64,000 bases of DNA from Tidjanibacter sp. (GCA_045132795.1 JBGUSZ010000094.1:2338-66337); one strand, 5' to 3'; counted from the stretch's first letter, positions 26,342 to 41,636 are shown. Notes: generated by a model not told the origin, from the letters alone. Program-made: numbers and translations.

Positions 26342-26371
26342 GTTTGATATGTTTTTAGGTTAAACTTTCCA

Positions 26372-26379
26372 CAAATGTA
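26372..26379 (-). promoter_or_regulatory. Candidate -7 box TACATTTG
   Basis: Plus strand caaatgta. It lies 31 nt upstream of the ATG at 26341. Confidence 0.35.
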
Positions 26380-26479
26380 TGCAAAAATTCCCGAAGATGT
26401 CCCCACTGTATGTGCTATTTTGACCAATAAGCCCTAATTCTTTAATCGCCATAGCCATACAATCCTCTCCAAAAACCAC

Positions 26480-26510
26480 AAAAAAAAGAGAAGTCCTCTC
26501 GAACTTCTCT
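26480..26510 (-). terminator. Intrinsic terminator after tRNA-Leu
   Basis: The minus strand reads AGAGAAGT tcgagagg ACTTCTCT followed by T8. Confidence 0.72.
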
Positions 26511-26515
26511 TCTCG

Positions 26516-26599
26516 TACCCGGAGCCGGGATCGAACCGGCACAGGGGTGAACCTATTGGTGTTTGAGACCAACGCGTCTACCAATTCCGCCATCCGGGC
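26516..26599 (-). tRNA. tRNA-Leu (anticodon CAA), long variable arm
   Basis: The reverse complement reads GCCCGGATGGCGGAATTGGTAGACGCGTTGGTCTCAAACACCAA...GCCGGTTCGATCCCGGCTCCGGGTA. The anticodon loop is CTCAAAC. The overlapping 91-aa ORF is a translation artefact. Confidence 0.93.
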
Positions 26600-26613
26600 C
26601 TCTTTTGAGTGCA

Positions 26614-26621
26614 CAAAGATA
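26614..26621 (-). promoter_or_regulatory. Candidate -7 box TATCTTTG for tRNA-Leu
   Basis: Plus strand caaagata. It lies 15 nt upstream of the mature tRNA 5' end. Confidence 0.45.
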
Positions 26622-26742
26622 CTGATAAAATTCAATATTCCAACTCCCCAACCTCATTTTTTCGAAAGAATAGTTGTTTTTTCGCCCACAATGTCACAAT
26701 AAATTCTCTCCGAAACAGCACACTTCCACTCAATAGGCACAC

Positions 26743-26773
26743 AAAAAGGGGAGTACCAAGTGGCGCTCCCCTT
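26743..26773 (-). terminator. Intrinsic terminator after the 26796-27434 gene
   Basis: The minus strand reads AAGGGGAG cgccacttggta CTCCCCTT followed by TTTGTGTG, with the T-run continuing directly from the stem. It lies 23 nt after the stop. Confidence 0.68.
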
Positions 26774-26795
26774 GTGTTACATCGAAAAAACTCCC

Positions 26796-27434
26796 CTAGA
26801 AGCGGAACGATGCGCCGAGGTTGAGGATTGCAAGGCCACCGCCAAGTTCGAGGTTGGCAGCAATCTTCTCTGTAAACCAATAGCGGGCACCCAGGCTGAT
26901 GCCCAAGCCGAGCTGTGCAGCGGTGGTGTTGGTCGATTCTACGGCCAAGTCTTCGCCATACTCACCCCACAATCTTGTGTTTTCAATAACCATACCCACG
27001 GAGATAGCAGCGTAGGTGTCGAGTTTCTTCACCTCCACGCCAAAAGCGCCAAGAACGTCATAGTGTACATAACCCTTGGCCGCAGCGCGGATGACGTTGA
27101 AAGTGTAGCCATACTCGGACTCAACCTCGCCAGTGATGATGTTTCCCCAGGTCATAAGGTCGATTGCATTGGTGTAGCCCAGCGAGCCGCCCACGCCAAT
27201 CGAGAGGCCCTCGATGTCAAAGGCGTTCTCCAACAAACCATACTCATACGAGAGTTCAATGGGAGGGAACTTGCTATCCCAGTCACCGGTGGGGAAAAAT
27301 ACGTTGCCCAAGCCGATGGTACCAGATACAATTTGGTCGCCCTTGTTAAGATAGGGGTTTGTTCCTTCGCCACTCTGTGCCGAAAGCGAGAAAGATGCAA
27401 CCAATGCAGCTGCCACGAGTAATAATTTCTTCAT
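26796..27434 (-). CDS. Small outer-membrane beta-barrel protein
   Basis: 212 aa. Signal peptide ending SAQ, Gly/aromatic-rich alternating strands, and a terminal LNLGASFRF beta-signal. Confidence 0.78.
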   Translation of the reverse strand: MKKLLLVAAALVASFSLSAQSGEGTNPYLNKGDQIVSGTIGLGNVFFPTGDWDSKFPPIELSYEYGLLENAFDIEGLSIGVGGSLGYTNAIDLMTWGNIITGEVESEYGYTFNVIRAAAKGYVHYDVLGAFGVEVKKLDTYAAISVGMVIENTRLWGEYGEDLAVESTNTTAAQLGLGISLGARYWFTEKIAANLELGGGLAILNLGASFRF

Positions 27435-27601: not shown

Positions 27602-28507
27602 CTATTTTGCAAAGTTGGGTGTGTCGAAAGAGAAACTCACACCGAGCCTAATCTGGTGGTAGGGCCAATCGACCAAGCCCACTTGGTGGCCCACTCGCAA
27701 CCACACATCTCCAACCCTCCACGACACATTGGTTTTGAGCGTCATCGGACTGTCGCCATCGCCTTCCCAACCAACATATCCGCCCAAGCAGGTGTCTATG
27801 GCAAGCCTATTGTTTGCTCTTGGGGGTCTATACGCCAGCAGAAGGCCATACATCACAGCGTCGTTTTGTCTTCCATTGTCGGTTTGCCAACACAGAAAAC
27901 CTCCGCTTGCAGCCACTCTCAGTCCGCTATTGCCCACCTGACGCCCTGCGGCCACGTCAAAGAAATAGCCGGGGGAGTCGTAGCAACGTCCGTCGGCCCA
28001 CTTGTTGGCCGAGGCGGTCTTTATTGCCGCCCTCACCGATACATCAATGCCGTGTTGTGCCTCATTAAATAGGTTTATGTCGGTGGAAACATAGACATCA
28101 CCCGAGTCCACACCCCTCAAATTACCCTTGTGTTGCAGGCGTCGCAGGGCATTCACTTCGGCCGAGGTATAGTATGACTCAACGATGGGCATCCACACCG
28201 TAAGGTTGGCCCTTGGGGTAAATAGCGGGGTGGTTAGGCGGACAAACACATCACCCGTGAGGTCGTCGCCCACGCGCCCCGTGGTTGTTCCCAAGAAGCA
28301 GTCGCCATAGAGCTCTACCTTCATTGTGGGCGAGGTTCGACCATCGAGCATATCGGGTACGGGGAAGGCGTTAGGGCCGAAGTAGGCAGGGCCAATCTTG
28401 CTTGGAATGGCATAGTTTGGCCCCACGATGGAGGTTTGTGCGTTGCTGTTTATGCAACACACTGCCAAACCAAGCATCAATACACACAAGGATACAAGTC
28501 GTTTCAT
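27602..28507 (-). CDS. Uncharacterised secreted, barrel-like protein (last gene of the pilus operon)
   Basis: Start placed at ATG 28507 (MKRLVSLCVLMLGLAVCCINSNAQ signal). It is 28 nt after the stop of the 1092-aa gene. The sequence is Gly/Asp/aromatic-rich with alternating segments and a near-terminal IRLGVSFSF. I recognise no family. Confidence 0.6.
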   Translation of the reverse strand: MKRLVSLCVLMLGLAVCCINSNAQTSIVGPNYAIPSKIGPAYFGPNAFPVPDMLDGRTSPTMKVELYGDCFLGTTTGRVGDDLTGDVFVRLTTPLFTPRANLTVWMPIVESYYTSAEVNALRRLQHKGNLRGVDSGDVYVSTDINLFNEAQHGIDVSVRAAIKTASANKWADGRCYDSPGYFFDVAAGRQVGNSGLRVAASGGFLCWQTDNGRQNDAVMYGLLLAYRPPRANNRLAIDTCLGGYVGWEGDGDSPMTLKTNVSWRVGDVWLRVGHQVGLVDWPYHQIRLGVSFSFDTPNFAK

Positions 28508-28535
28508 TACAAACAGGGCTCCTTCTTTATAGAGG

Positions 28536-31500
28536 CTATAACAAGCCCTCGGCCTCCAACTCCTCCACCGAAGCATCACGTACACATCGTGGAACTCCAA
28601 CGCCATGGGTGTCCACCATAAAGATGTTGCCGCCCTGGATACCCCATCCAGCCTTGGGCTCTTTGGCTACACCAGGTTCTCCGAGGACACCAAACGAGTA
28701 GTAGGTGCGGCAGAAAGGTAGCCCCTCGTTAACATAATCCGGGAAATAGAGAAGCATCATTGCCAACTCGTTTTGGTTGGGAATACGGTAGCCCTCTGGG
28801 CAGTGGCCACTCAACACACTACTACCCACGTCCGAGATATACCTATTGTGGTTTACCCACGACATGTTATGGTTGTATGACGCAGGCAGAGTGGGTAGTG
28901 ATGCTACCTTTGTGGGTGCGATGTAGAATCTCTTGGAGAGTCGGTTGATTTCGCGGTTCTCATCACTGAACGGAAGGTCTATGGATGATTGGTCTCTAAG
29001 GGCCTTTTCGTCGAGCCTTACGCAGGTGATGGAGAGCTTTTCGGTGTCATACTCAACGTATGGGTCTGGCTCCTGTCTGAGGTCATAGCCCGTTGACATC
29101 GTTTCATTGGTGGTGCCGAGGTTGCGCACACAGCGTACCGTCCATTGATAGACACGTCCAACATTACCACCCGTGTTACTCCAACGCCACGAGTTGTACA
29201 AGTCGCCCGTGGAGCACAACTCTTCGGCCCACACGATGGTTGGGTTGTTGCTGTTGCTGCCATACATAGTGCTCGAAACAACGTGCTGCCTCCACACCGA
29301 GTTGTCCATACTCATTCGCTCCTCCGAGGTGCGGTGGTAGAGCCTCGAATCGAACTTCAAAAGGCCCTGGCCGATGGTCATACCCGTCAATTGACGGATG
29401 GCGGCAGTGTACCAACGAATCTCGTCTTGGTCAATCACACCATTGCCATTGTTGTCCCTGTTGCGGGTCATGCATGAGTAGCGTATTTTTTGGTATCCGT
29501 CTCGTAGCTGTGGCACCTCGTTTTCCACCTCCCAATTCACATAGTCGGTCCACTTGACATTGGCTTTGATGGCGGTGTTGCTGGTAAATAGATTCCACTC
29601 TTTGATGGAGTTGAGTCGTCCGTTATCCTGTGAGTCGTTTCCTCGGTTTTGGGCGGGATTTACATTTGGCTCTTCATACTTTGTGGTTGGAGCATTCTGG
29701 TCGTAGCGCCATATTCCACTATGCTCGTCTGTGTACTCAACACCCCACGCTGTGTGGAAAGAGGTGTTGGCTGGATTTGTGTCGTAGATGGACTGGATGG
29801 GCCTCTGCTGGATGGTAATTACAGAGCCCTTCGATGAACTCTCCTGGTCGTTGGACATAAAGGCGTCGCTCAAAATATAAAGATACCTATCCTGTGGTGC
29901 ATTTACATACTGTTTCCAGAAGTCGTCGGGAATCTCAGCGTTCGGGTCGCGAGGGTCGTAGTCGTAGTAGAACTCGTCCACAAAGGCAGTGACGCAAATC
30001 TTGGGGCCATTGGGGTCTTTGTCGAAGTCGCCCAGAGTGCTATACCCCTTGCTGCTGTCGTAGCCTTCAAGGAATAGGTCGTGCTGGGTTTTGATATATT
30101 TTACCAATTGGCTGACGTTCATAATGCCGTCGGGCGAATTCGTTTCGTGGTATTCGACATTGGTATACTCGCGGCGCAAGTCAGAGAAATAAACGCCATT
30201 GCTGTTCATCTTGTTGATGCGGAATTTCACCCACTTGTAGTCCAACCCAGGGGGGATAATATCATTGCCATCGGCGTCAATTTCGGGGCCACCTTCACCA
30301 AAGGGTGTGTTTACAAGCCAGGTAAGAGGTTTCTCTCCGCTGATATTTTTGGCGTGGAAGGTGATGGTGCGGGAAGAATAGTGGCAGTCGCAGTGGGCGA
30401 TCTCCTCCGTTGCTACAACAATATTACCGAAAGCTCCAGGTTGGGTTTCGCTTGGTTGGCGACCATTTTCATCCACCGACTCTCCACGTGCATCCACCTC
30501 AATGGCGATGCTGTTCAGACCGTTGATGGTAACCGTGTAGTGATAATATGTGTTGCGGTTTACGTTGAAGTTGTTCACCTGCTCTTTGGTTTGTCCTTTG
30601 CCGAAGTTGCCGAGGTGGAGAAGGTATTGTACGTCACCACCAAGCTCTTGTCCGGCTTGCTCTCCTTCGAGCTCAGTTTTTACACTACACTTAATTAGGG
30701 CATAAGTCGATAGATTGTCGGCATACATAAAATCTCTGTTGCCATCTTCGTCAATGCCGTTAAGCCACCATGTGCCGTCTTGGTATTTTGTCTGTCGGCT
30801 GCGCTCATGGAAGGGGGCGTAGTTAGGCACGGCACTGTTGGTCAAAGGAATCTCCACTTTGGGACTACGGCGGTTTTCCAGCATATAGAACCACGCCTCA
30901 TAGGTACTTGTGGTACGTCCGGAGGCGGTAGTTTGCGAAACCTCATCAAAGGAGTTGAATCCATAGTCGAAGAAGTCCTCGGAGGAGGTCGTTGCGTCGT
31001 GTCCGGTAGTGGTGTCTGTTGCTCCCTCCACCCTCATCTCATAGGGGAATGCATAGCCTATCTTGGGGAGATTCACCACTTTTATTTCGGCATTGGTAAG
31101 ACTCATAACCTTGTCGCCCTGTTTGAGAGTGATGTGAATCTTGGCATCCATGTGGTGGAGTTGGACGGTGGCGGTATTGTTGGTGTTATTTCCTGTGAAG
31201 ATTTTAACCACACCATTGTTGTCTTTGTGAATCTTCACATTTTCCAACACACCACTCATTTGCAGAGCGCCATTGCGTGAGAGGGTTTGTTGAATCATAC
31301 GTCCTCTGATGTTGAGAAGCTCCTGCTCGTCTTGTACCTGTGAGAGTCGGTCGGAGGAGATATCGACCATGTCGGCATCAAGATTAGTGATAATGTAAAT
31401 TTGATAGGTATCCTCTTCGTCAACTGTGGTGTGGATGTTAACCACGCCGGCTGTTTTTGTGCCGGCCGATGAGGAGTTGTTCACAAACCAACAGTCTTCC

Positions 31501-31814
31501 GTGGCACTATGTACTTGTGCTTGAGATGTTTTGAGGTTGGTGTTGTCATAATACTGTGAGTAAACCCTGTCGCCAGACGAGTCGAAGAGAAATACAAACA
31601 TATTGAGCACTCGGTTCTCGTCGAGGTAGTTGAGGTTGTAGGCTCGGCTACGAACTTCGATGTTCTCCACTTGTGGAGGTGCAAAGTGGAGTATTATGCC
31701 ATTGGTGGTGGGATTTTTCACATCCTCACCCATAAGGTCGTTGGTACAGCCCATTAGTGTCAAACCACCAATCAGCAGTGCCATCAACATTGATATATAT
31801 TTGCTCTTTATCAT
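28536..31814 (-). CDS. Giant pilin-like lipoprotein: FimA-type pilin module plus two DUF1566/Fib_succ-like lectin-type modules (predicted tip adhesin)
   Basis: Start at ATG 31814 (MIKSKYISMLMALLIGGLTLMGC). Arg57-Ala58 site. FimA-like blocks (NRVLNMFVFLFD, VQLHHMDAKIHITL, VNRNTYYHYTVTINGL). Two modules end in WTVRCVRNLG and GVPRCVRDAS, the second also containing CPEGYRIPNQNELAMML. There is a DNNGNGVIDQDE Ca-loop-like motif. Confidence 0.75.
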   Translation of the reverse strand: MIKSKYISMLMALLIGGLTLMGCTNDLMGEDVKNPTTNGIILHFAPPQVENIEVRSRAYNLNYLDENRVLNMFVFLFDSSGDRVYSQYYDNTNLKTSQAQVHSATEDCWFVNNSSSAGTKTAGVVNIHTTVDEEDTYQIYIITNLDADMVDISSDRLSQVQDEQELLNIRGRMIQQTLSRNGALQMSGVLENVKIHKDNNGVVKIFTGNNTNNTATVQLHHMDAKIHITLKQGDKVMSLTNAEIKVVNLPKIGYAFPYEMRVEGATDTTTGHDATTSSEDFFDYGFNSFDEVSQTTASGRTTSTYEAWFYMLENRRSPKVEIPLTNSAVPNYAPFHERSRQTKYQDGTWWLNGIDEDGNRDFMYADNLSTYALIKCSVKTELEGEQAGQELGGDVQYLLHLGNFGKGQTKEQVNNFNVNRNTYYHYTVTINGLNSIAIEVDARGESVDENGRQPSETQPGAFGNIVVATEEIAHCDCHYSSRTITFHAKNISGEKPLTWLVNTPFGEGGPEIDADGNDIIPPGLDYKWVKFRINKMNSNGVYFSDLRREYTNVEYHETNSPDGIMNVSQLVKYIKTQHDLFLEGYDSSKGYSTLGDFDKDPNGPKICVTAFVDEFYYDYDPRDPNAEIPDDFWKQYVNAPQDRYLYILSDAFMSNDQESSSKGSVITIQQRPIQSIYDTNPANTSFHTAWGVEYTDEHSGIWRYDQNAPTTKYEEPNVNPAQNRGNDSQDNGRLNSIKEWNLFTSNTAIKANVKWTDYVNWEVENEVPQLRDGYQKIRYSCMTRNRDNNGNGVIDQDEIRWYTAAIRQLTGMTIGQGLLKFDSRLYHRTSEERMSMDNSVWRQHVVSSTMYGSNSNNPTIVWAEELCSTGDLYNSWRWSNTGGNVGRVYQWTVRCVRNLGTTNETMSTGYDLRQEPDPYVEYDTEKLSITCVRLDEKALRDQSSIDLPFSDENREINRLSKRFYIAPTKVASLPTLPASYNHNMSWVNHNRYISDVGSSVLSGHCPEGYRIPNQNELAMMLLYFPDYVNEGLPFCRTYYSFGVLGEPGVAKEPKAGWGIQGGNIFMVDTHGVGVPRCVRDASVEELEAEGLL

Positions 31815-31879
31815 AGTCAAAACATTTTTTCTTTCACAACCTTGTTCTTTTGCCCGACACATATAGCCGGGAAACGCCC

Positions 31880-33466
31880 TTAATCAAATGTGGCATCTCC
31901 GCCAAAGCCCTCCTTCCAGGGCACAACCTCGAAGTTAAAATAGCCATCTTCGGGGTTGAAGAAGACGTTCACACCCACCTTGATGTGTGCGTTGCGTCGT
32001 ACCTCTGTTAGCGGAATGGTTCGACCGCTCGAATCAATGATGGTCAACTGCGCCGAGTGTGTGGCTTCATTGTTATTCCACGGGGCTTTTGACCAGCCGG
32101 TTGCCTGCTTGGGGGTATAGAGGTACCACAGTTGGGCAGAGCTGGTTGTGGAGTTGGCATTACGACTACCTCGTGAAAGCACTGGAGAGTTGCCACTATT
32201 GGTGGTGAGGAAGTATTTGTAGTATCTTTCCGTGTAGGAAGAGCGAAACCAAGTGGTTTGGTTGTAGCTACCAAAGGCGAATGTTTCGGCATTGTTCACA
32301 TTGGAGTTCAACGAGAGCGAGGTGCTGCTACGCCTGAGGTAGAGTCCGGTGCCAACGTTTTGGATTGTTCCCGATGTGTTGCCAGAGAATACCCATAGGT
32401 AGTTGTCGTAGTTTGATGTGGGAGCCGTTTGCGAGAATGCCAACGTGTTATTGTTGACGTAGAGATATCGGTTGTTGCTCACATTGCGTACAAAGTAGTG
32501 GTGCCCAGCGATGATGTCGTAGTGACTCTTGGAGGTGTCGGGGCCGCCTGTTGTTGTGGTAATTTGGGGAACCTCTTTGATCTCCGCATTGCTACTGTCA
32601 GGGTTGAATGTATTATTGTCAAAGACGGCGACTTTCAACTCCATGGTGTAGTTGTCACTAGGGGCGCTACCCTCATAGATGTAATCGTCAAATAGAGTAA
32701 ATTCGCCACCATTGCTAATGTAATGTGAGTCGGAGTTAACCGCAAAACCATTCCAAGCAACACCGTTGGGGGCGGTGTAGTCGTGGTTAAAAAGGTATGT
32801 GTTGGAGGCGTTGAAGTTACCAAGCGAGAAGCCCGCCACAACAATCCTGTAATCTTCGTCCAACACGTGGTTGTGGACCACAATGCTAATCCTTGCGACC
32901 ACTCTCTCCACTTCGCCATCGATGATGTTGACACCTTGTTTGAACGACACGGGAATGACTGCTGTCATAGGCATACCTTTCTCTTCGGAGAATGCAGGGG
33001 TGTTGGTGCCGGAGAGTGCGCCCACCAGCGCATCTTTCAGGTTGGCCACAGATGCATCTTCGGCCATATAGCGACTCAAATCGATGGGGGTGTTGGCGAT
33101 GAGATAAATCTCGTGGTCACCCCTATCCAGATTCTCAAACGACACCAAGGCCTCTGTCCTGTCGGCGTTAAACTCAGCGCTACTCTCGTTGAGTGCGAGC
33201 CACTTGTGAACCACTCCGCTTTTGGTTATAAACACCGTGAGGTTGTTCATCTTCTCTCCGGCCATAGCGGTGCCGGTGCCACCTATGGCACGCCCCTCTT
33301 CTGCCACGAGAGGCGAACTTATGGAGATGACCACAGATGCATCCTTGGGGCCACCATTATTACCTCCGCCCACATCGGGCATCTCGGGGGTGATGTTGGT
33401 ACAGCCGACCAACATCATCAGTCCTGCGATTACGAGGGAGAATATGTTTCTGTTGTTACGAATCAT
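31880..33466 (-). CDS. Pilin-like lipoprotein with inserted beta-trefoil-like triple repeat
   Basis: Lipobox MLVGC (Cys22) and an Arg59-Ala60 site. FimA-like EVERVVARISIVV. Three roughly 40-aa pseudo-repeats at aa 315-452 end in YLWVF, ETFAF and QLWYLY. The C-terminal strand is PWKEGFGGDATFD. Confidence 0.7.
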   Translation of the reverse strand: MIRNNRNIFSLVIAGLMMLVGCTNITPEMPDVGGGNNGGPKDASVVISISSPLVAEEGRAIGGTGTAMAGEKMNNLTVFITKSGVVHKWLALNESSAEFNADRTEALVSFENLDRGDHEIYLIANTPIDLSRYMAEDASVANLKDALVGALSGTNTPAFSEEKGMPMTAVIPVSFKQGVNIIDGEVERVVARISIVVHNHVLDEDYRIVVAGFSLGNFNASNTYLFNHDYTAPNGVAWNGFAVNSDSHYISNGGEFTLFDDYIYEGSAPSDNYTMELKVAVFDNNTFNPDSSNAEIKEVPQITTTTGGPDTSKSHYDIIAGHHYFVRNVSNNRYLYVNNNTLAFSQTAPTSNYDNYLWVFSGNTSGTIQNVGTGLYLRRSSTSLSLNSNVNNAETFAFGSYNQTTWFRSSYTERYYKYFLTTNSGNSPVLSRGSRNANSTTSSAQLWYLYTPKQATGWSKAPWNNNEATHSAQLTIIDSSGRTIPLTEVRRNAHIKVGVNVFFNPEDGYFNFEVVPWKEGFGGDATFD

Positions 33467-33499
33467 TGTGTGTCAGTCTTTGTTGGTTTCACAGTGTGT

Positions 33500-34585
33500 T
33501 TACTGTATGTAGATGTCTTGGTTGGACTTCACCTCCGTCCACTCCTTGATGCTCACGGTGATGTTTGCCGAAGCGCCACTGAGTTCCATTGTAAAGACAT
33601 ATTTTTTGCCTGGTTCGAACGTTATTGCGGGGAGGTAGGCGCGGTGAATAGCCGTATTACCGGCTTGTGTTTTGAAGACGAACGACACTTGCTGCTCGTC
33701 AATGGTTTGAGGAATAGCGAAGATTACGCCATCACCATCGAATGCCACGGCGGCACTGCTGTCGGTCCTACCGATGGTCTTGGAGCCTTTCCACAGATAG
33801 TTGTTGTTGGAGGGCTGCGAGGGAGTCCAGTGTATGTTGGTTGCGGAGTCACCCTCCATCATCACACCATAGTATAACACGCCCGATGCGGCAATGCCGT
33901 CGATGTATGCTTCGGTGAGTATATCGGTGCTTTCGATTTTGTGTTTGATGCGGAATTGGAGCGCCGAGAGGACGTGCTGAAATTCCAACCTAACCTTATT
34001 CATACCCTCTGCGTCTTTTGTAGGGTTGCGGAGGGTGCGTGCGACCATCAGGTCGAACTTGTTGGTCTGGGTGTAATAGTTGAGTACCAACTTGGTTGCG
34101 TCGCTCATCGCCTGGATGTTCTCCGGAGGCAGGCCGTTGACGTGGTCGTTACCGTCGGCATTGAAAGGCAGGAAGGCCCTAAATTCGTGGTCGAGGAGTC
34201 GATGCCAAGGTCTGCGAGGCTCCTCGTCGGTGCCGCAGTTGTATTTGGAGGTGTCGCCATAGACCCATTGGTCGGTGTGTGTTGCGCCTTTGGCATCACG
34301 GAAGCTGGCCACATAGGAGAGAACCTCGGGGTGGTTGAGGAAGATGTTGTCGCCTGTTTCGTATCTGCCGAAGAGGGCAATCTCGTAGTTTTGGATATTG
34401 CTTGCTGCGATGGTAGTCGAGCCGGCACCGGCTCGTCCTGATTCGGAGAGCGGCAAAGCTTCGGTGGGAGCCTCAAAAGAGAGCACAGCCTCCCCTTCGG
34501 GTTGTGGAGTTTCAACCTCGGGAGTGTTGCAGGCTGCCAGTGCGAGTAGGGCCAGCACAAAGGCGTATGTTGTAAATTTCTTCAT
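33500..34585 (-). CDS. Fimbrillin (Mfa-like) family lipoprotein, paralogue 4
   Basis: Start at ATG 34585 (MKKFTTYAFVLALLALAAC). Arg51-Ala52 site. Blocks FRAFLPFNADG and LEFQHVLSALQFRI. C-terminus EWTEVKSNQDIYIQ. Confidence 0.75.
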   Translation of the reverse strand: MKKFTTYAFVLALLALAACNTPEVETPQPEGEAVLSFEAPTEALPLSESGRAGAGSTTIAASNIQNYEIALFGRYETGDNIFLNHPEVLSYVASFRDAKGATHTDQWVYGDTSKYNCGTDEEPRRPWHRLLDHEFRAFLPFNADGNDHVNGLPPENIQAMSDATKLVLNYYTQTNKFDLMVARTLRNPTKDAEGMNKVRLEFQHVLSALQFRIKHKIESTDILTEAYIDGIAASGVLYYGVMMEGDSATNIHWTPSQPSNNNYLWKGSKTIGRTDSSAAVAFDGDGVIFAIPQTIDEQQVSFVFKTQAGNTAIHRAYLPAITFEPGKKYVFTMELSGASANITVSIKEWTEVKSNQDIYIQ

Positions 34586-34641
34586 CTTTCTACCAAGATT
34601 TAGCAAAGTTTTTTCTTTTCTTTCAACAACCGCTCTCACCA

Positions 34642-35583
34642 CTAATCGTCGATGATGGCGCTAATGTTGTCGTGTAGGAAACCGAGGCTGTCAGTGTACA
34701 CTTTCAGGGAGTAGAGATATCCCACACCGGGTTGCCATGCAACGCTTTTGGACACCTCCAACACCTGGTTGGGGAGAGTTGCGTTTTCGTATACGAAATC
34801 GCACAGGAGTTTAATGTGGGCGGTGGTTACTTGTGGTAGCAACCACTTGGCCTCTCCGAGTAGTCGTACCTCGCCGGGCCTTACTGTTTCGCTGCCTTCG
34901 AACACCACCTGCTCACACAGCTCACCTGTTGTGGTCCACGACGGCTCGGGGAGAGAAGAGAAACTGCCTTGGTGCTGTAACTGTCCTATGGATATTTTGC
35001 GCACCACAACACTGATGTGGTCTGGTAGGTGGGGTATTACAGCGAACTGCACCGAGCAGAGAGCGTGCTTGAAGGGGATGGTGATGACACCTCCGCCCAC
35101 TCCGTATTCTTTGTCGCAGATGGGGCCTGCGAACATCAACTCCTCGGAGCCTTTGTTCAACACATCCACGTCGCTGAAAACCACGCCCTCTTTGTTGGAG
35201 AAGGAGGCCTGTGCGCTTGCGGGCGAGTAGGCTGCCACGGTGAGGATTTTCTCGGCGGGCCAAGCGTGTGGCGTTGAGGTGTTCCACTCTGTGCCGTTCC
35301 AACCAACCACCCCACGGTCTACCATCATATTGGCGTAGTCTTTGTCATATTTCCAGGTGAGGTTGTCGTCGAGCGCAGCCACCCACACTCCGAAGGAGTC
35401 ATCCTTGGAATAGATGTTGTGGTTGCCCTCACCACCCTCATCGGCTCTGGAGACCTGCGACATCATCACCACGGGCTCGTAGGAGATGGGGCCCAGGTCG
35501 GGCCACACCTTTTCGGTGCAACTGCTCAGTGCGAGTGCTGCCACGATAGCGAGGAGGGTGAATATGTTCTCTTTTTTCTTCAT
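34642..35583 (-). CDS. Fimbrillin (Mfa-like) family lipoprotein, paralogue 3
   Basis: Start at ATG 35583 (MKKKENIFTLLAIVAALALSSC). Arg46-Ala47 site. Blocks LTVAAYSPASA and IPFKHALCSVQFAV. Confidence 0.75.
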   Translation of the reverse strand: MKKKENIFTLLAIVAALALSSCTEKVWPDLGPISYEPVVMMSQVSRADEGGEGNHNIYSKDDSFGVWVAALDDNLTWKYDKDYANMMVDRGVVGWNGTEWNTSTPHAWPAEKILTVAAYSPASAQASFSNKEGVVFSDVDVLNKGSEELMFAGPICDKEYGVGGGVITIPFKHALCSVQFAVIPHLPDHISVVVRKISIGQLQHQGSFSSLPEPSWTTTGELCEQVVFEGSETVRPGEVRLLGEAKWLLPQVTTAHIKLLCDFVYENATLPNQVLEVSKSVAWQPGVGYLYSLKVYTDSLGFLHDNISAIIDD

Positions 35584-35611
35584 TTGTGCAGTTTGGTATT
35601 TGAGGTGTGGA

Positions 35612-36694
35612 CTACTCGATTTCGATGACAAAATCGCCACCGCTCATCCAGTCGGCGGAGATGATGGGCTTGTCAAACTCAATGAAACTTGTTGCACCCT
35701 TGTCCCAAGTGAGGTAGTATGTGTAGTAGTTTCCGCGTCCCCAATAGCTGTTGGTAAATTTCTGTCGGAGGTTGATGATTGCGCTCTCCACGGCTCTGTT
35801 GTAGGAGTCGTACCACTCCACGAATATTTCGGCCTGTGTACCCTCTATGCCCTCTTGGTGTGCTTGGGGAAGCAGGAGTGTGGGCTCGCCCACTTGGTTG
35901 GCGCTCATGTCCAGCACAATGCCATCGGTTCCTTCGTTGCGATAGTCATAGAGGACAATGGTTTTGGGTTGGGATTGTGCATCCCAACGCGATGTGGCGG
36001 AGGAGTAGTTGCCTCGGGTGAATATTTGTCGCAATTCCACACGTTGCAGGGTAATGTTGTATGTTCTGCCACCAACCACATACTCAGAGGCAAGGCCGGC
36101 GATGACCTGCACTTGGGAGAGGGTGTGACGGAACACGGTTGGGACACCTCCGAGGGTGTTGTCCTGGTGACGATCCTTCTGCCCTTCGCCCACCTCGGCA
36201 ATCATCAGGTCGATTCCTTTGGTTGCACTGTCATACGTATCCCATCCGGTTACGATTGTTGCATCATTGGCGGTGTTGATGGTGATGTTGGTTATCTGGT
36301 TGCCGTTGTTGTCGGCCCAGGGGGAGTGTGCGAAGAAGGTGAGGGTGTGGGTGTAGGGCCAGCGTTGTTTGGGGTTGGCCACCCACGCTCCGAGGCTCTC
36401 GTTCCACTCCACCTTGACACCTGCAAAATACTCCTCTGCGAGGTCGTTCTTGCTCTGGTCCCAGAAGTAGTCGCGTGGCATCCAGTAGGCAGTGGCGGCA
36501 AATGGGCGGTCGGTGGGGTAGACAAGTTGTTTACCCGCACGCACCACGTCGGGAAGCCCCACTACGGTCTGAAATCCGATAGTGTTGTCCTCCTGTGGTG
36601 TCGGCTCGGGGCCGAAATTGACACACCCCGCCAAGGCGAGGGCCAGGGCCATTGCCGCGAGTAGTGCCGATATGTGCGCTCTGGTGTTTAACAT
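35612..36694 (-). CDS. Fimbrillin (Mfa-like) family lipoprotein, paralogue 2
   Basis: Preferred start is ATG 36694 (MLNTRAHISALLAAMALALALAGC), with an alternative ATG at 36736. Arg52-Ala53 site. Blocks LTFFAHSPWAD and TVFRHTLSQVQVIA. C-terminus DWMSGGDFVIEIE. Confidence 0.75.
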   Translation of the reverse strand: MLNTRAHISALLAAMALALALAGCVNFGPEPTPQEDNTIGFQTVVGLPDVVRAGKQLVYPTDRPFAATAYWMPRDYFWDQSKNDLAEEYFAGVKVEWNESLGAWVANPKQRWPYTHTLTFFAHSPWADNNGNQITNITINTANDATIVTGWDTYDSATKGIDLMIAEVGEGQKDRHQDNTLGGVPTVFRHTLSQVQVIAGLASEYVVGGRTYNITLQRVELRQIFTRGNYSSATSRWDAQSQPKTIVLYDYRNEGTDGIVLDMSANQVGEPTLLLPQAHQEGIEGTQAEIFVEWYDSYNRAVESAIINLRQKFTNSYWGRGNYYTYYLTWDKGATSFIEFDKPIISADWMSGGDFVIEIE

Positions 36695-36894
36695 CCTTAC
36701 AACCAAATCTCTGTTTTCTTCTTTTTTCCCCCTCATGCCTATTCTATATGTCGTGTGTGGGCACAACACACAAAATCTTGTGTTTGTCTGTTTGTCTGTT
36801 TGTGCCCCGGGGGAGTAGTCGGCTCCCTCCGAGGCTTGGTTGGCGCAGGAGGCTTGTGTGCCTTTGCGCCTTGGGGGTGTTCTATACCACCGTA

Positions 36895-37917
36895 TTAGAT
36901 TTCGATGATGTAGGAGTTTGTGTCGGACTGATCCCAACCCTCTTCGGTGGGAGCCCAAATAATCTGCTCAACATCACCGATGGTGAGGTTGTAGCTAATC
37001 ACCTCGTTGATACCCCAACGCTGGTCTACAGTATCGAGGTCGTGGAGCGAGATTTTAACATTCACGGTCTCGGTAGCGTGGCCGCTCTCTACGGTGTAGG
37101 TAACCTCCAGCTGGCTGGCCGAGGTGAATGCCTGAGGAATAACATACTTGTGGTCCAGGGGCACAACAGCGGTTGCGTTAGTTACGGTGATGGCCTTTGA
37201 GGGGTCGGTAATGCCGTCAAACAACACACAGCTCTCGCTGCTGGGGCCGGCAGCCACAGTCCAATAGTCGTTCACACCGCTGGTGCCGGGAACGTGGTTG
37301 TAGGGCATAGTGTAGGTACCGGAGTGGTAAACACCATTGAGTTTCACCTGGGTCAGAGTGATGGTACGATCATCATCGGCAGCCTTGGTGATACCAACCT
37401 TGATTTGGGTGAGTTTGTGGCGGAACACGGTGTTCACGGGGTTACCCTTTGCCTCTTTCACGATGTCGGCAACCATAAAGTCTACGTTTTTGTTGGTCTC
37501 CACGCTGAAGTCGGCAAACACATAGTTCCTGTCTGCATCCCAGCTGCGGGTAGCGGAGATGCCATCAGGAGCATAGGCGAAGAAGGTCAGGCTACCCTTG
37601 GCAGGCCAATAGTAGGCGGTGCTGGTGGTCCAAACCTCCTCGCCACCGAGCGACCTCTTCTCAACTTTCTCGTTGGCGAAGTATTGTTCGGCGGTGGTGT
37701 GTACACCGGCCCAAGTCTCACCCTCATTCAAGAGGAAGGCAGCTGCCACAAAGTGGTTGTGGCTGGTGTAGGCGGCACGGCCATCGGTCTGCAAACCCGA
37801 AACGGTTGCAAAGTCGATCCTCTCACCCTGTGCAAAGTTACCACTGAAATCAACCTCGTTCTTCACGCAGCTTGCAAGTGCTACACATGCTGCTGCAATA
37901 GCGATAAGTTTTTTCAT
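36895..37917 (-). CDS. Fimbrillin (Mfa-like) family lipoprotein, paralogue 1 (candidate major stalk subunit)
   Basis: Lipobox ALASC (Cys17) and an Arg47-Ala48 site. Blocks LTFFAYAPDG and TVFRHKLTQIKVGI. C-terminus EGWDQSDTNSYIIEI. It is set apart by long untranslated regions on both sides. Confidence 0.75.
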   Translation of the reverse strand: MKKLIAIAAACVALASCVKNEVDFSGNFAQGERIDFATVSGLQTDGRAAYTSHNHFVAAAFLLNEGETWAGVHTTAEQYFANEKVEKRSLGGEEVWTTSTAYYWPAKGSLTFFAYAPDGISATRSWDADRNYVFADFSVETNKNVDFMVADIVKEAKGNPVNTVFRHKLTQIKVGITKAADDDRTITLTQVKLNGVYHSGTYTMPYNHVPGTSGVNDYWTVAAGPSSESCVLFDGITDPSKAITVTNATAVVPLDHKYVIPQAFTSASQLEVTYTVESGHATETVNVKISLHDLDTVDQRWGINEVISYNLTIGDVEQIIWAPTEEGWDQSDTNSYIIEI

Positions 37918-38076
37918 AGTTTTGATTGTTTTAGAAAAGTTAATAAATGTTAATTGGTTTGTTTGTGTTTTGTTTGTTGGTTGATTGTTTGATTGTTTCT
38001 GTTATTTGCGTTTTTTGATGTTGTCTGTTGTGTCTGTTTCGTGTTGTCAAGTTTTATTTTGGTTAGTTTATTTTCA

Positions 38077-39096
38077 TTACAATTCCAAGTCGAAGTGCTC
38101 CTCTTTCCAATCCTCCATTTCGGGCTTAAAGCCACCACCTGCCGTGGGAGGCGTGGAGGGTTTGTCGATGGTGATAACCTCATCCAGCAACAACCAGTTG
38201 TGGTCCCTGCATTCGGGGCTATCAAACAGGGCCGAAATGTTGAAATCCCTATTCTCAACACGACCGTCCACCGTGTTGATGTTGAACGACACCCACAACT
38301 CGTTGTTTGAGTGGTCAATGTGGCCAAAGGAGTTGAACACGCTGCACAGCACCGCCGCGCCCTTGTCGTCGCTCTTCTGCAAGGAGAAATAGATGGCCGT
38401 TTCGGGAATGTCCACCCTCTGGCGGCTACCAAGCATATTACTTCCCGCCATACCCGTGAGGATGGCCTGCGCACTCGACACCCACTCCAAGCCCTCAACT
38501 TTCACTTGCAAGTAGAAGGTCTCGGTTACGGGTGTGGCCGTAGTCTTGATGGTATAGAGGTCGTCGTGCCAGGGGATGCTCCTTTTGGCATCGGTGGCCA
38601 CCCATAGTAGGTTTGGCTGGTGGCGGATGTCCACAGGCTCGTCAGCTCGAGTGTTGAAACGACTCGCCAGCACCTCCGAAACCGATTGGGTGTAGGCCTC
38701 AATGGTGGGGTGGCTGTAATCGTTGCGGATGTAGGTCGAAGGGGTATCGAAGTTGTAGATGACCATCTCGTAGTCGCCGGGCAGGATGCCCACACGGCCC
38801 GAAACGACGTGGCGACCCTCCGAGTCGGTCGATACGTTGCTGATGTAGCTCTCGCCCGCAATCCTATCCTTGCCGGGCTCATAGAACAACACCCTCAGCA
38901 TCTCGGGGTCGGTTTGTTGGGGTTGTATCTTGGGATTATATATGTCGCACGTTACGTTGTGCATACCCTCGTCGTCGATGACAACCTGCAACTCGGCGGT
39001 GAAGCTGGGGTCCAACAGAGGCCTGCGCTCACAGCCAAACGCCGCAAGCAACCCCATCACAAGGAGTATGGCCCTATGTCTTAACGCCCCTCTCAT
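38077..39096 (-). CDS. FimB/Mfa2-like (DUF5119-like) fimbrial anchor candidate
   Basis: Lipobox AAFGC (Cys22). There is no Arg-Ala dipeptide in the roughly 65 residues after the Cys. The C-terminal GGGFKPEMEDWKEEHFDLEL tail resembles anchor-type subunits. The start overlaps the upstream stop (TAATG). Confidence 0.65.
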   Translation of the reverse strand: MRGALRHRAILLVMGLLAAFGCERRPLLDPSFTAELQVVIDDEGMHNVTCDIYNPKIQPQQTDPEMLRVLFYEPGKDRIAGESYISNVSTDSEGRHVVSGRVGILPGDYEMVIYNFDTPSTYIRNDYSHPTIEAYTQSVSEVLASRFNTRADEPVDIRHQPNLLWVATDAKRSIPWHDDLYTIKTTATPVTETFYLQVKVEGLEWVSSAQAILTGMAGSNMLGSRQRVDIPETAIYFSLQKSDDKGAAVLCSVFNSFGHIDHSNNELWVSFNINTVDGRVENRDFNISALFDSPECRDHNWLLLDEVITIDKPSTPPTAGGGFKPEMEDWKEEHFDLEL

Positions 39097-40343
39097 TACC
39101 TTTGGCCTCCTTTCGTCTTAATGGTGAGGGGGACAACAAGCGAAATCTCCGCCTTGGTGGGACCAACCCAGTGAAGTCGGCCGGCGTTGAACTTATCCCT
39201 GATGAGGTCTTGCCAGTCGTCCGTGGGGACATAGTGGCGGTAGGGGATGCTGGCGTAGCCCACCGAGAGTGAGAACTCGATGTTCATTCGTTTGCCCAGC
39301 GGTGCCGAGTAGCCATAAGTGAGGCCGGCACTCCAAAACTCGCCCTGATAGCAAGCCCAGGTGTTGGCCTGAAAGTCGAACTTTCCACTCATAGCATAGG
39401 CTCCGAGGAAGTGACCCACAAGCCTATCCCTGCCGGGGAAGGTGTCGCTGCGAGGAACGGGTTTGGGCGCAAACCACCATCTCGCCTCGCCACCAATGGA
39501 GAGCAGCTGCAAGCAGTAGCGGTTGTTCTCCGTTAGCCACCAGGGGCAGATGTGGTTATAAACCAGCGAGAAGCGGTCGCCAATGGGTGCCTCCACTGCA
39601 AAGTTCACAACCGTAGCCACGTCATAGAGCGCGTTAGTTTTCAGTGCCAAGATGGTCTTACGGGCAGGCCTTAGGTCGGGCAGGGGTCTAAATTGCAGGT
39701 GGGAGGGAAGGGTTATTTCGGATGTTACATCCTTTCGGGGTGCGGTGGTGGGAAGTGCCGCCACGTGCTGCGACCAATAGATAACAAGTGTGGTCGCTGT
39801 TCGCAGGTAGGGAAGGTGGTGGCGGTCGATGTAGGAATATGCTTGACCTTTGCGCAACTTCATCAGTTGGCGCATCTTCTTATCGGGGTGTACACCCTTA
39901 CGACGCAAAATCTGCAAAACCTCTTTCTTAAACGGAACCTTCGAGTCGGCCTCCACGCGTTCGATAAGGCCGGTGAAGTCCTCACCCAGAGGCTCCTCCC
40001 TCATCTGTTCCAGCCCCAAACTTTTATAGCGTTTTAGCAACCAATATTTGGTAGTACCGGCACGGCGGGCCGAAAGTTTCTGGTTGTAGCGAAGAGGTCC
40101 CTCGGGCGATGCGTAGGCAACAATGGAGACGCTGTCGATATACTTTCCGTTTGCCTCAAAGAAGTTGTCGAGGGATTGGATGGTTTGGCGGTTGGAGAGG
40201 TAGCTCTCGTCGAGGACATATTTGTCGTGGCGGAAATAGAGAGTTGCAGACATTGTGTGGGACTCCTTCTTTTGGGCCCAAAGTGAAGTCGCGCACACAA
40301 TTGTGGCGAGCAACACAACTATCCTTCTGCAATAACTTTTCAT
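39096..40343 (-). CDS. Outer-membrane protein: OmpA-like (DUF3868-like) N-terminal region + DUF3575-like barrel
   Basis: Signal peptide ending LWAQ. An OmpA-like block (SVSIVAYASPEGPLRYNQKLSARRAGTTKYWL). The C-terminal half has DUF3575-type strands (ILALKTNALYDVATVVNFAVEAPIGDRFSLVYNHICPWW...GGEARWWF...EFSLSVGYASIPYRHY). Confidence 0.72.
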   Translation of the reverse strand: MKSYCRRIVVLLATIVCATSLWAQKKESHTMSATLYFRHDKYVLDESYLSNRQTIQSLDNFFEANGKYIDSVSIVAYASPEGPLRYNQKLSARRAGTTKYWLLKRYKSLGLEQMREEPLGEDFTGLIERVEADSKVPFKKEVLQILRRKGVHPDKKMRQLMKLRKGQAYSYIDRHHLPYLRTATTLVIYWSQHVAALPTTAPRKDVTSEITLPSHLQFRPLPDLRPARKTILALKTNALYDVATVVNFAVEAPIGDRFSLVYNHICPWWLTENNRYCLQLLSIGGEARWWFAPKPVPRSDTFPGRDRLVGHFLGAYAMSGKFDFQANTWACYQGEFWSAGLTYGYSAPLGKRMNIEFSLSVGYASIPYRHYVPTDDWQDLIRDKFNAGRLHWVGPTKAEISLVVPLTIKTKGGQR

Positions 40344-40500
40344 CGGTTTCTCTCTAATATCCCTAACCCGTCTGTATGACTCGGTTTGTGCCTACATTTT
40401 GCAACCAGATTTGCGCCTGCGCAGTCTGGTTGTGCGTGTTTGTTGGGTGGTGTCCGTTGCTCTTTTCCCCAAGGGGAAAGCCATACAGCCCACCAAACAA

Positions 40501-40508
40501 CAAAATTA
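40501..40508 (-). promoter_or_regulatory. Candidate -7 box TAATTTTG for the pilus operon
   Basis: This is the only TAnnTTTG match on the minus strand between the AraC terminator and the ATG at 40343. It lies 158 nt upstream of that ATG. Confidence 0.35.
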
Positions 40509-40587
40509 GTTGATATTTTGCGTAGATACAACAGCCGATGTAATATGTGGCAAAAAAACAGGTACTTTTTTCCTTATTTTAGCCCAT

Positions 40588-40596
40588 GGGGGGGGG
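40588..40596. repeat. G9 (C9 on the coding strand) homopolymer upstream of the pilus operon
   Basis: Read directly: catGGGGGGGGGtatt. It lies 80 nt upstream of the candidate -7 box. Confidence 0.9.
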
Positions 40597-40672
40597 TATT
40601 TTGAATATTTGCTTGGAAAAATTGCACATGTTGTTTTCAGCGGGGCGACTATCCCTATCTTCTCCAACAAGA

Positions 40673-40701
40673 ACAGCCCGCAACGTGGTGTTGCGGGCTG
40701 T
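40673..40701 (-). terminator. Hairpin terminator after the AraC-family gene
   Basis: Perfect 12-bp stem ACAGCCCGCAAC / GTTGCGGGCTGT with a 5-nt loop, 33 nt after the stop. T-rich flanks lie on both strands. Confidence 0.65.
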
Positions 40702-40733
40702 CTTTTGTCTTTGTGTCAAGTGAGGTTTTGTGG

Positions 40734-41636
40734 TTAATCACTAACACTCTGGCGCCACTGCTGTGGAGTCATTCCCGTGTAGCGCTTGAAATAGCGGCAG
40801 AAGAACGAAGGAGTTGCAAAGTTCATCCTATCGCTCACAATGGTGGTCGACAGGCTCGCATTGAGCAACAGTCGTTTGGCATTTTTGATTACCATCTCCG
40901 CAATCATATCGGAAGGAGTGATGCCCGTAACCCTCTTGATTTTGCCCGAAAACTGCTTGGCGCTCATACCAAACAACTCGGCGTAGTATTCCACATCGCG
41001 GTGCTCGAACGAGCTAGCTGTAAGCATCATACTAAACCTCTTGGCCAACTGTTCGCTAGCAGAGCTCTCCTTCACGGCGAGGTTGCGACGCAGGAAAATG
41101 TCAACCAACTCCGAGCGCAGAATGGCCAATGTGTTGCGGTCAATGTCGGCACGATTGTAGTTGCGATAGTTGGTCGAGCTGGCGGCAATATATTCCATCA
41201 GCGCAGTCATCACCCTATTTTCCTGTTTCAGCAACGAGATTACAGGGCATTGCCTTAGGCGGGGGAAGGTGTTTACAATACTGCTCACCGATGCCTCTTC
41301 GTTGATACGTCCTACGATGGTTGATGCCAAAAAGTCGGGCGATACGGTGGTGAAACGGCAGTAGGTTCCGGCAAAGATGATGAGCATCTGTCCGGCCCTA
41401 ACAATATGGGAGGTTCCATCAACAGAAACCTGTACGCTACCGGCCTTGCATACCCACATTATCACTCCGTCTTTGAACATGATGGAGCGGTCCATCATCG
41501 AACTTGTCATCGCATCGCCACCGGCTATCTCGAAGTAGTGAAACGAAGGCTCAGGACGCAATTGCAGACTCTTGACCATAAAGTCAAAGTCGAAAATTCG
41601 GTTAGGGTTTTGGGAATTATTGTGCTGTGTCGGCAT
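40734..41636 (-). CDS. AraC-family transcriptional regulator
   Basis: 300 aa. The C-terminal double-HTH region is (YYAELFGMSAKQFSGKIKRVTGITPSDMI...FATPSFFCRYFKRYTGMTPQQWR). The N-terminal region is a cupin-like sensor. Confidence 0.9.
   Translation of the reverse strand: MPTQHNNSQNPNRIFDFDFMVKSLQLRPEPSFHYFEIAGGDAMTSSMMDRSIMFKDGVIMWVCKAGSVQVSVDGTSHIVRAGQMLIIFAGTYCRFTTVSPDFLASTIVGRINEEASVSSIVNTFPRLRQCPVISLLKQENRVMTALMEYIAASSTNYRNYNRADIDRNTLAILRSELVDIFLRRNLAVKESSASEQLAKRFSMMLTASSFEHRDVEYYAELFGMSAKQFSGKIKRVTGITPSDMIAEMVIKNAKRLLLNASLSTTIVSDRMNFATPSFFCRYFKRYTGMTPQQWRQSVSD

Follow-up and report, generated by a model that had tools for sequence, protein, structure and literature searches.

A stretch of DNA from Tidjanibacter sp. 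(GCA_045132795.1 JBGUSZ010000094.1:2338-66337), 64,000 nucleotides (nt) long and referred to here as the window, carries a cluster of pilus-related genes between positions 27,602 and 41,636. Eight consecutive genes, g1 to g8 (40343 to 28536, minus strand), very probably constitute a chromosomal type V (FimA/Mfa-class) pilus operon of a Tidjanibacter-like member of the Rikenellaceae. The operon belongs to a widespread class in which an OmpA-like/DUF3575 outer-membrane protein comes first, followed by a DUF5119 anchor, a series of 2-7 Mfa-like pilins, a putatively lectin-bearing accessory pilin of ~500 amino acids (aa) and a tip protein of ~1050-1100 aa. A preliminary description of the same DNA had presented the locus as an expanded nine-gene variant, bracketed by two outer-membrane proteins and hard-wired to both barrels, and as a candidate for an undescribed system. 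The operon is one of eight genes, not nine, and it is of a common kind, neither expanded nor undescribed. A search for similar plasmid DNA found none.

The region contains nine co-directional minus-strand open reading frames (ORFs), g1 to g9, whose starts were chosen as those giving proper signal peptides. Recomputed from the ORF coordinates, the junctions from g1 to g9 are -1 (TAATG), 159, 200, 28, 56, 33, 65 and 28 nt, which matches the preliminary description exactly in both the number of ORFs and the eight lengths. Long ORFs also occur on the plus strand here, but they only shadow the minus-strand genes. The features of the region, with the evidence for each in brackets, are listed in order from the upstream regulator to g9.

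40734..41636, minus strand: AraC-family regulator, 300 aa (Pfam HTH_18 and HTH_AraC)
40673..40701, minus strand: terminator-like hairpin after the AraC gene (folding against shuffles)
40501..40508, minus strand: candidate Bacteroidetes-type -7 box TAATTTTG (TAnnTTTG match)
39096..40343, minus strand: g1, outer-membrane protein, 415 aa (Pfam DUF3575 and AlphaFold2 model)
38077..39096, minus strand: g2, anchor pilin, lipoprotein of 339 aa, DUF5119, FimB/Mfa2-type role (Pfam, PDB profile)
37918..38076, minus strand: 159-nt A/C-rich, structure-free leader of g3 (minimum free energy, MFE)
36895..37917, minus strand: g3, Mfa_like_1 pilin, 340 aa, candidate major stalk subunit (Pfam)
36804..36870, minus strand: twin hairpin 3' of the g3 stop (folding, conservation in relatives)
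35612..36694, minus strand: g4, Mfa-like pilin paralogue, 360 aa (BLASTP to g3)
34642..35583, minus strand: g5, Mfa-like pilin paralogue, 313 aa (BLASTP to g3)
33500..34585, minus strand: g6, Mfa_like_1 pilin paralogue, 361 aa (Pfam)
31880..33466, minus strand: g7, accessory pilin, 528 aa (orthologues, profile comparison)
28536..31814, minus strand: g8, tip-type lipoprotein, 1092 aa (orthologues, hhalign to g7)
27602..28507, minus strand: g9, predicted outer-membrane barrel, 301 aa, outside the pilus system (AlphaFold2, genomic context)

Pilin subunits and their assembly signals

Assignment of g2 to g8 to the fimbrillin superfamily relies on Pfam profiles for three of the genes and on paralogy, orthologues or profile comparison for the others. 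In searches with profile hidden Markov models (HMMs), the anchor g2 matches DUF5119 (E = 2e-16), and g3 and g6 match Mfa_like_1 (E = 2.4e-20 and E = 9e-14, respectively), all three above the gathering score; the family profile of g2 also aligns over its full length with PDB entry 5cag_A (E = 4e-35). The products of g4 and g5 are Mfa-like pilins by virtue of their paralogy to g3, with BLASTP E-values of 1e-13 for g3-g4, 5e-12 for g3-g5 and 1e-4 for g4-g5, and a precomputed Pfam table lists Mfa_like_1 for proteins identical to both on the contig JBGVQD010000392 of a metagenome-assembled genome (MAG). Membership of g7 and g8 comes only through orthologues and profiles. In the preliminary description, g2-g8 had been read as type V (fimbrillin/Mfa-class) lipoproteins, with an anchor-like subunit, four paralogues resembling stalk subunits and a pair of large accessory ones, and this make-up is borne out. 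Each of the seven lipobox cysteines that it listed (FGC, ASC, AGC, SSC, AAC, VGC and MGC) is found in g2-g8, and g3-g6 contain the shared blocks, LTFFAYAP/TVFRHKLTQIKV among them.

The two large subunits are assigned from their orthologues and from profile-profile comparison. The g7 product reaches P_gingi_FimA with E = 1e-3, just below the gathering score, and six of its 22 orthologues match the same family. The N-terminal ~260 residues of g8 align with the N-terminus of g7 (hhalign probability 98%, E = 1.5e-13); among 19 g8 orthologues, 12 match DUF4906 and 10 match P_gingi_FimA, and the family profile gives marginal matches to Mfa4 (4rdb, E = 0.02; 5dhm) and to a 'fimbrial assembly protein' (3r4r). 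Judged from these alignments, g8 belongs to a family related to DUF4906 and FimA; g8 itself has the MGC lipobox, an R|S motif and, in place of a donor-like tail, the ending ...RCVRD found in at least 20 orthologues.

Both large subunits had been described as lectin-bearing, a claim that is left with little behind it for g7 and, in profile searches, with nothing for g8. RicinB_lectin_2 is matched by three of the 22 g7 orthologues (best E = 1.8e-5), and the g7 family profile resembles the beta-trefoil lectin SeviL marginally, at profile positions 311-442 (E = 0.02). Neither g7 nor g8 matches DUF1566, Fib_succ_major or ricin-B in permissive scans with cut-offs of E <= 5 for Pfam and E <= 0.01 for NCBIfam, and PDB sequence searches for lectin domains in the two proteins themselves gave nothing significant. 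The probable architecture of g7 is a FimA-like N-terminal domain, a beta-trefoil lectin-like insert (~310-450) and a donor-strand-like tail, with the lipobox VGC and an R59|A motif near the N-terminus and the sequence ...PWKEGFGGDATFD at the C-terminus. The g8 motifs GYRIPNQNEL and RCVRD presumably resemble those of lectin families at the motif level; g8 has no significant profile match.

Comparison of the window with the related locus L006 reveals a hypervariable patch in g7 at 32085-32260 (~180 nt, residues ~402-460) that includes 3-nt indels. The patch sits inside the putative beta-trefoil lectin region, and its flanks are 99-100% identical. A diversity-generating retroelement was considered as its source and rejected, as the changes include 3-nt indels and extend beyond adenines, and the window holds neither a template repeat nor a YxDD reverse-transcriptase ORF.

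Polymerization of type V pilins depends on a small set of signals. Mfa1 is cut at Arg49|Ala50 and FimA at Arg46|Ala47 (PMC13655056); anchor and stalk pilins have C-terminal donor strands and tip pilins do not, and the anchor pilin retains its lipid (PMC13655056; review PMC12632263). A lipobox of the form [LVIAFM]-x-[GASV]-C is found in all of g2-g8, and in 117 of 131 pilins and 55 of 57 anchors from related loci. An R|A dipeptide lies 24-37 aa after the lipobox Cys in g3 (R47), g4 (R52), g5 (R46), g6 (R51) and g7 (R59), with R|S in its place in g8 and no such site in g2. Across the families, an R/K-[AST] site 16-50 aa after the Cys is present in 110 of 117 pilins, 15 of 15 g7-like and 19 of 20 g8-like proteins, as against 13 of 55 anchors, so that the rate of the cleavage motif (motif occurrence only) is 94-100% in the former three and 24% in the last. 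The tails of g2-g7 and their orthologues follow the sequence pattern 'D/E-W-x(5-8)-[ITF]-x-[IFL]', which in g2 takes the form DDW...DIxI, and g8-like proteins end in ...RCVRD.

On that logic, g8 would be the tip because it has a cleavage site and lacks a donor tail, g2 would terminate the fiber and stay lipid-anchored because it has a donor tail and no cleavage site, and g3-g7 would be able both to accept and to donate strands. In the mechanism proposed for the operon, the transcript would begin upstream of g1 and may be controlled by the AraC-family regulator next to it. After export by the Sec pathway, the products of g2-g8 would receive their lipid at the lipobox Cys and move to the cell surface, a route established for the family. 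An Arg-specific surface protease would cut g3-g8 at the R|A site (R|S in g8), 24-37 residues after the Cys, opening a groove into which the next subunit inserts its C-terminal 'W...x-hydrophobic-x' donor strand. The tip would be g8, adaptors or minor stalk subunits would be supplied by g7 and g4-g6, g3 would be the likely major stalk subunit, g2 would end the fiber and keep its lipid anchor, and g1 would tether the pilus base or the outer membrane to the cell wall rather than export pilins.

Four observations single out g3 as the candidate major subunit. Its leader (37918-38076) is extremely A/C-rich, with an MFE of 0 kcal/mol over 149 nt, consistent with structure-free translation initiation of a highly expressed gene. 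The 200-nt gap between g3 and g4 folds at -67.5 kcal/mol (z = -5.1), and directly after the g3 stop it contains a twin hairpin, GGCGCA...UGCGCC and GCCUCG.GGGAG...CUCCCCCGAGGC. Both hairpins are kept in L006, L009, L010 and L007, the last of which shows compensatory changes in the stems, and the pair has diverged less than the coding sequence of g3. An Rfam search of the intergenic hairpins returned only tRNA-Leu and sub-threshold noise, with no family for the twin hairpin, which may be an attenuator or a stabilizer of the mRNA 3' end. Between L006 and the window, g1, g2 and g5-g8 are 99-100% identical, and the segment 38000-36250, comprising g3 and the 5' part of g4, has only 43-81% DNA identity. 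The window g3 is 56-60% identical to every orthologue, while the g3 genes of L006 and L009 share 86%. Because identity drops within an otherwise 99-100% identical strain pair, the window g3 is read as a replaced allele, reminiscent of the fimA genotypes. The structure-free leader, the conserved hairpin pair and the allele replacement between strains together make g3 the likely major stalk subunit. The allele swap in g3 and the hypervariable patch in g7, which find a parallel in the fimA genotypes of Porphyromonas gingivalis, point to selection on surface-exposed, ligand-binding parts.

The best-studied relatives of the operon are the fim (fimX-pgmA-fimA-fimB-fimC-fimD-fimE) and mfa (mfa1-5) clusters of P. 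gingivalis (PMC3436787, PMC13655056, PMC7482747). As in the window, their pilins are lipobox-Cys lipoproteins with an Arg|Ala site ~25-35 residues on, and their C-terminal donor strands have a putative counterpart in the donor-like tails described above. In both systems there is one anchor/terminator (FimB/Mfa2-like), the operon closes with the larger accessory or tip subunits, and the allelic diversity of the major subunit in the fimA genotypes is matched by that of g3. The outer-membrane protein PgmA, encoded among the first genes of the fim cluster, can be likened to g1 by position. The window differs from P. gingivalis in that the anchor precedes the stalk genes, four Mfa_like_1 paralogues stand in place of one stalk gene, and the first gene, in translational coupling with the anchor, encodes an OmpA-like/DUF3575 fusion. 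Moreover, the regulator is of AraC type and not a FimS/FimR two-component system, and the tip belongs to a DUF4906-related 1100-aa family and not to Mfa5, a protein of the von Willebrand factor/type IX secretion system kind.

The operon class and the outer-membrane protein at its head

Extent of the operon class was gauged by a g1-alignment scan of metagenome contigs, which collected 80 loci with a g1 identity of 29-48% that were annotated with HMMs. Among the 62 loci with enough room, the anchor comes right after g1 in 53 by script and in ~61 after allowing for artefacts of ORF starts, as most of the others visibly contain the anchor ORF. Where at least 6 kb of downstream sequence is available, 39 of 40 loci have 2-7 Mfa-like pilins (two in 13 loci, three in 19, four in 4 and six or seven in 3), usually with genes of g7-like and g8-like type behind them, and L107, L121, L122 and L123 have exactly the layout of the window. 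The arrangement of g1, anchor, pilins, g7 and g8 is therefore the norm in the 80 metagenome loci, against the earlier portrayal of an expanded variant and an undescribed system; the term 'expanded' is also countered by the seven genes of the P. gingivalis fim cluster, which include an early outer-membrane gene, pgmA (PMC3436787). The preliminary description had itself allowed that the architecture might prove to be a common, already characterized locus type: it is common, and it is not experimentally characterized.

Closer relatives display the same organization. The array from AraC and g1 through g8 lies beside the ATP synthase operon in L006-L009, with g1 identities of 66-98%. Among more distant loci, an Alistipes contig (L090) carries DUF3575 and DUF5119, a pair of Mfa_like_1 genes and genes of 685 and 1048 aa and lacks AraC, and a Bacteroidaceae MAG (L092) has AraC, DUF3575, DUF5119 and Mfa_like_1 in two copies. 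The DUF3575-DUF5119-fimbrillin operons of Bacteroides and Alistipes thus share domain order, content and the tight overlap of g1 and anchor with the window, which is distinguished by its four Mfa-like paralogues (2-7 elsewhere), its AraC gene, its position next to the ATP synthase operon and its particular g3 allele. Published genomes likewise show multigene pilin operons to be numerous and modular: in B. fragilis 638R, 22 operons together hold 93 pilin genes (bioRxiv 10.1101/2024.11.15.621889), and in B. thetaiotaomicron BT4227-BT4234, proteins with DUF3868 and DUF3575 are found beside an Mfa1-type fimbrillin (PMC10434189). Mentions of DUF3575, DUF5119 and DUF3868 in the literature searched are limited to gene lists, which for DUF3575 come from four papers.

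Some metagenome loci, L127 (1-15100) and L131 (4300-20900) being examples, depart from the common layout. Certain of them carry two g1-anchor-pilin operons placed back to back and divergently, and others string together as many as seven Mfa-like pilins in tandem and lack g7-like and g8-like genes.

The gene that heads the operon, g1, encodes a signal peptide, an alpha/beta OmpA_C-like domain (~29-190), a disordered linker (203-223) and a DUF3575 barrel (229-408). DUF3575 is matched with E = 6e-31, and the Pfam OmpA family is matched weakly, at 20 bits under a gathering score of 27. The AlphaFold2 model, built on a 46-sequence alignment, has a mean predicted local distance difference test (pLDDT) score of 84 and folds residues 229-408 into a C-terminal barrel of ~8 strands. 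The top 50 Foldseek matches listed for g1 are almost all OmpA-like peptidoglycan-binding domains, including those of A. baumannii OmpA, Salmonella OmpA, OprF, PorE, Pal, RmpM and TagL, with E = 1e-5 to 1e-4 against the domains of OmpA, OprF, PorE and Pal. The motif NQKLSARRA (NxxLSxxRA), with N87 and L90, is invariant in the 46 homologues, as are E81 and R94. The N-terminal half of g1 hence combines the predicted fold and the motif of an OmpA-like peptidoglycan-binding domain, and the whole protein is predicted to be a 'reversed OmpA', its small barrel coming after the domain that would bind the cell wall in the periplasm. With the OmpA/Pal/PorE family it shares the OmpA_C-like fold with NxxLSxxRA and a predicted 8-stranded barrel. 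It differs in that the usual Asp of the diaminopimelate-binding site is a Glu (E81); compared with OmpA, the order is reversed, the periplasmic domain being N-terminal and the barrel C-terminal, the barrel is DUF3575 and not the OmpA membrane domain, and the gene is dedicated to pilus operons.

The g1 stop overlaps the g2 ATG by 1 nt (TAATG), and the overlap between g1 and the anchor is a 4-nt ATGA in 54 of 68 related loci, or about 80%. The overlap of stop and start, here and in these 54 loci, argues for translationally coupled expression of g1 and g2 and makes a physical partnership of g1 with the anchor pilin probable. The most likely function of g1 would be to tether the pilus base, or the surrounding outer membrane, to peptidoglycan. 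A more specific proposal, advanced only tentatively, is that g1 forms a dedicated type V pilus base, a peptidoglycan-tethered outer-membrane platform onto which the lipidated anchor pilin docks. In the current model, the fiber is held by a lipid tail alone, and a peptidoglycan-linked partner of the anchor would change how anchoring is viewed. Such a platform, if real, would give a lipid-anchored fiber resistance to shear or would help pilin lipoproteins to reach the outer leaflet, and the locus would be one convenient representative of a platform-bearing operon class. Taken singly the locus matters little, being one more type V pilus operon in an uncultured gut lineage of Rikenellaceae; the survey is more useful, as it concerns a whole operon class headed by an OmpA-like/DUF3575 gene that overlaps the anchor start.

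Gene 9 and alternative readings

The ninth gene encodes a protein with an ordinary signal peptide (...NSNAQ|T) and no lipobox. It has no match in Pfam or NCBIfam and 1319 homologues across Bacteroidales. The AlphaFold2 model (pLDDT 78; predicted template modeling score 0.73) contains a 12-stranded barrel at residues 62-294. Residues 25-60, nearly invariant in the family and predicted with low confidence, carry the motif PAYFGPNAFPVPDMLDGRT, and this N-terminal segment could be a plug. The best Foldseek matches are FapF and a COG4313 channel, with template modeling (TM) scores of 0.5-0.65 at ~10% identity, and the barrel also matches many other 12-16-stranded barrels, including NanC and autotransporter beta-domains. 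The FapF/COG4313 channels resemble the predicted g9 in strand number, size and an N-terminal plug-like segment; g9 differs from them in having no profile match, no fap-type neighbors and a variable, housekeeping-like context.

Genomic context of g9 was surveyed in 80 species-representative genomes with a g9 relative of 41-90% identity, spanning Rikenellaceae, Cryptobacteroides, Muribaculaceae, Bacteroidaceae and Paludibacteraceae. By tblastn, a relative of any of g1-g8 lies within 10 kb of g9 in one species only, the closest Tidjanibacter MAG (L010), and profile HMMs for g1, anchors, pilins and g7 detect nothing near g9 in the other 79. Conversely, none of the 80 g1-type loci has a g9 relative. 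In Alistipes, g9 follows genes for a TP_methylase, a lipid A acyltransferase and two GT2 proteins (LpxL/GT2), and elsewhere neighbor clustering places it by DnaJ/GrpE, RuvB and others; its identity across Alistipes, 62-70%, is far above the conservation of the pilins. On the strength of the context in the 80 species and of its absence from g1-type loci, g9 was rejected as a component of the pilus system. It encodes an outer-membrane protein that is conserved independently of the pilus genes, and in this lineage it is an incidental downstream neighbor of their operon. The same two results remove the ground for the terms 'nine-gene', 'bracketed' and 'hard-wired to two barrels'. In its own right, g9 stands for a large family of Bacteroidales outer-membrane proteins that has neither a name nor a Pfam model.

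The surface-sorting step of type V pilins is still called unknown (PMC13655056), as the preliminary description had also stated, and the outer-membrane protein PgmA has been 'suggested to be the usher' (PMC7482747). These statements lend some appeal to a reading in which all nine genes form one system and g1 and g9 supply the missing machinery for export and assembly of type V pilins. The start of g9 only 28 nt past g8, with no recognizable terminator or -7 box between them, the recurrence of this adjacency in L010, the nearest structural resemblance of the predicted 12-strand barrel to the amyloid-secretion channel FapF (TM ~0.55-0.6) and the almost constant position of g1 as first gene all agree with it. 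The genomic distribution of g9 is hard to reconcile with such a role, as pilus genes are missing within 10 kb in 79 of 80 species and the neighbors vary (LpxL/GT2, DnaJ/GrpE, RuvB), and its high identity across Alistipes fits a housekeeping gene. The resemblance to FapF is that of a generic 12-strand barrel, given that COG4313, NanC and autotransporter beta-domains also score. As for g1, fimA alone is enough for fimbriation in P. gingivalis, and neither fimX nor pgmA is needed for FimA assembly (PMC3436787).

The predicted structure of g1 bears on the same question. A dedicated translocon would be a large barrel or an oligomeric pore; the monomer model of g1 has a barrel of ~8 strands. Ushers form a 24-strand barrel, and we know of no precedent for a barrel of ~8 strands as a protein-conducting pore. 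Because it joins a small ~8-strand barrel to a periplasmic OmpA-like domain, g1 is unlike a protein-conducting pore and fares poorly in the part of pilin-export barrel that had been suggested for it. The reading as a single nine-gene system with two export components is very improbable.

A different alternative accepts the family assignments and holds that the products are surface lipoprotein adhesins with a fimbrillin fold that do not polymerize, forming a short complex on the cell surface or on outer-membrane vesicles (OMVs), as P. gingivalis PG1881/Ffp1 does. Fimbrillin-family loci of Bacteroides are hard to see as fibers (review PMC12632263), OMV-targeted fimbria-like lipoproteins exist (PMC11225709), and the presence of four divergent paralogues, none of them a dominant stalk gene, may point to a complex of mixed subunits. 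Set against this is the conservation of the full set of polymerization features, namely the anchor with no cleavage site, the R|A sites in every other subunit, the donor-like tails in all except the last one and a tip-type last gene, together with the features of a highly expressed major subunit in g3. We consider a complex of this kind very unlikely.

The preferred reading, a polymerizing type V pilus encoded by g1-g8, has points of its own that weigh against it or against parts of it. The operon is known here from its genes alone, and no Arg-specific protease for pilin cleavage was identified within the window. A fresh hmmscan of g4 and g5 against Pfam-A found nothing, even at E <= 5, a mismatch with the precomputed table that is probably a difference of version or method. 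The g8 product by itself has no significant Pfam match, and g7 falls just under its gathering score. The role given to g1 is pure inference, and the dispensability of PgmA for FimA assembly in P. gingivalis (PMC3436787) speaks against it. Finally, the 28-nt spacing and the lack of a terminator or -7 box between g8 and g9 make co-transcription of the two possible, which, if present, would not imply a shared function.

Regulation and neighboring genes

The AraC gene upstream of g1 matches HTH_18 (E = 7.6e-19) and HTH_AraC, in accordance with the regulator and its separate terminator-like hairpin reported in the preliminary description. The same gene is found between atpG and g1 in L006, L007/L008 and L009 (72-95% aa identity), and a window-like AraC gene lies upstream in only one of 47 distant g1-type loci. 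From this distribution, the AraC protein is likely a local regulator of the operon in this lineage, linked to the locus only within the Tidjanibacter-like clade and sporadic elsewhere. The hairpin at 40673-40701 has a stem of 12-13 bp and folds at -27.3 kcal/mol (z = -5.6), a value reached by none of 200 shuffles, and the tail downstream of it is only moderately U-rich.

Between 27 and 42 kb, the minus strand holds four matches to TAnnTTTG: TAATTTTG before g1, TATATTTG before araC, and one each inside g3 and g8. The box TAATTTTG (40508-40501) is ~158 nt upstream of the g1 ATG, with a chance expectation of ~0.15 per gap, and the matches weakly suggest promoters upstream of araC and g1. A scan for sigma-70-type promoters, whose motif model is unsuited to Bacteroidetes, found no enrichment over shuffles.

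Downstream of g9, at 25691-27434, two genes for small outer-membrane barrels flank a tRNA-Leu(CAA) gene at 26515-26599; their products are 212 aa, with a weak match to OMP_b-brl, and 216 aa, with a match to OMP_b-brl_2 (E = 1.6e-13).

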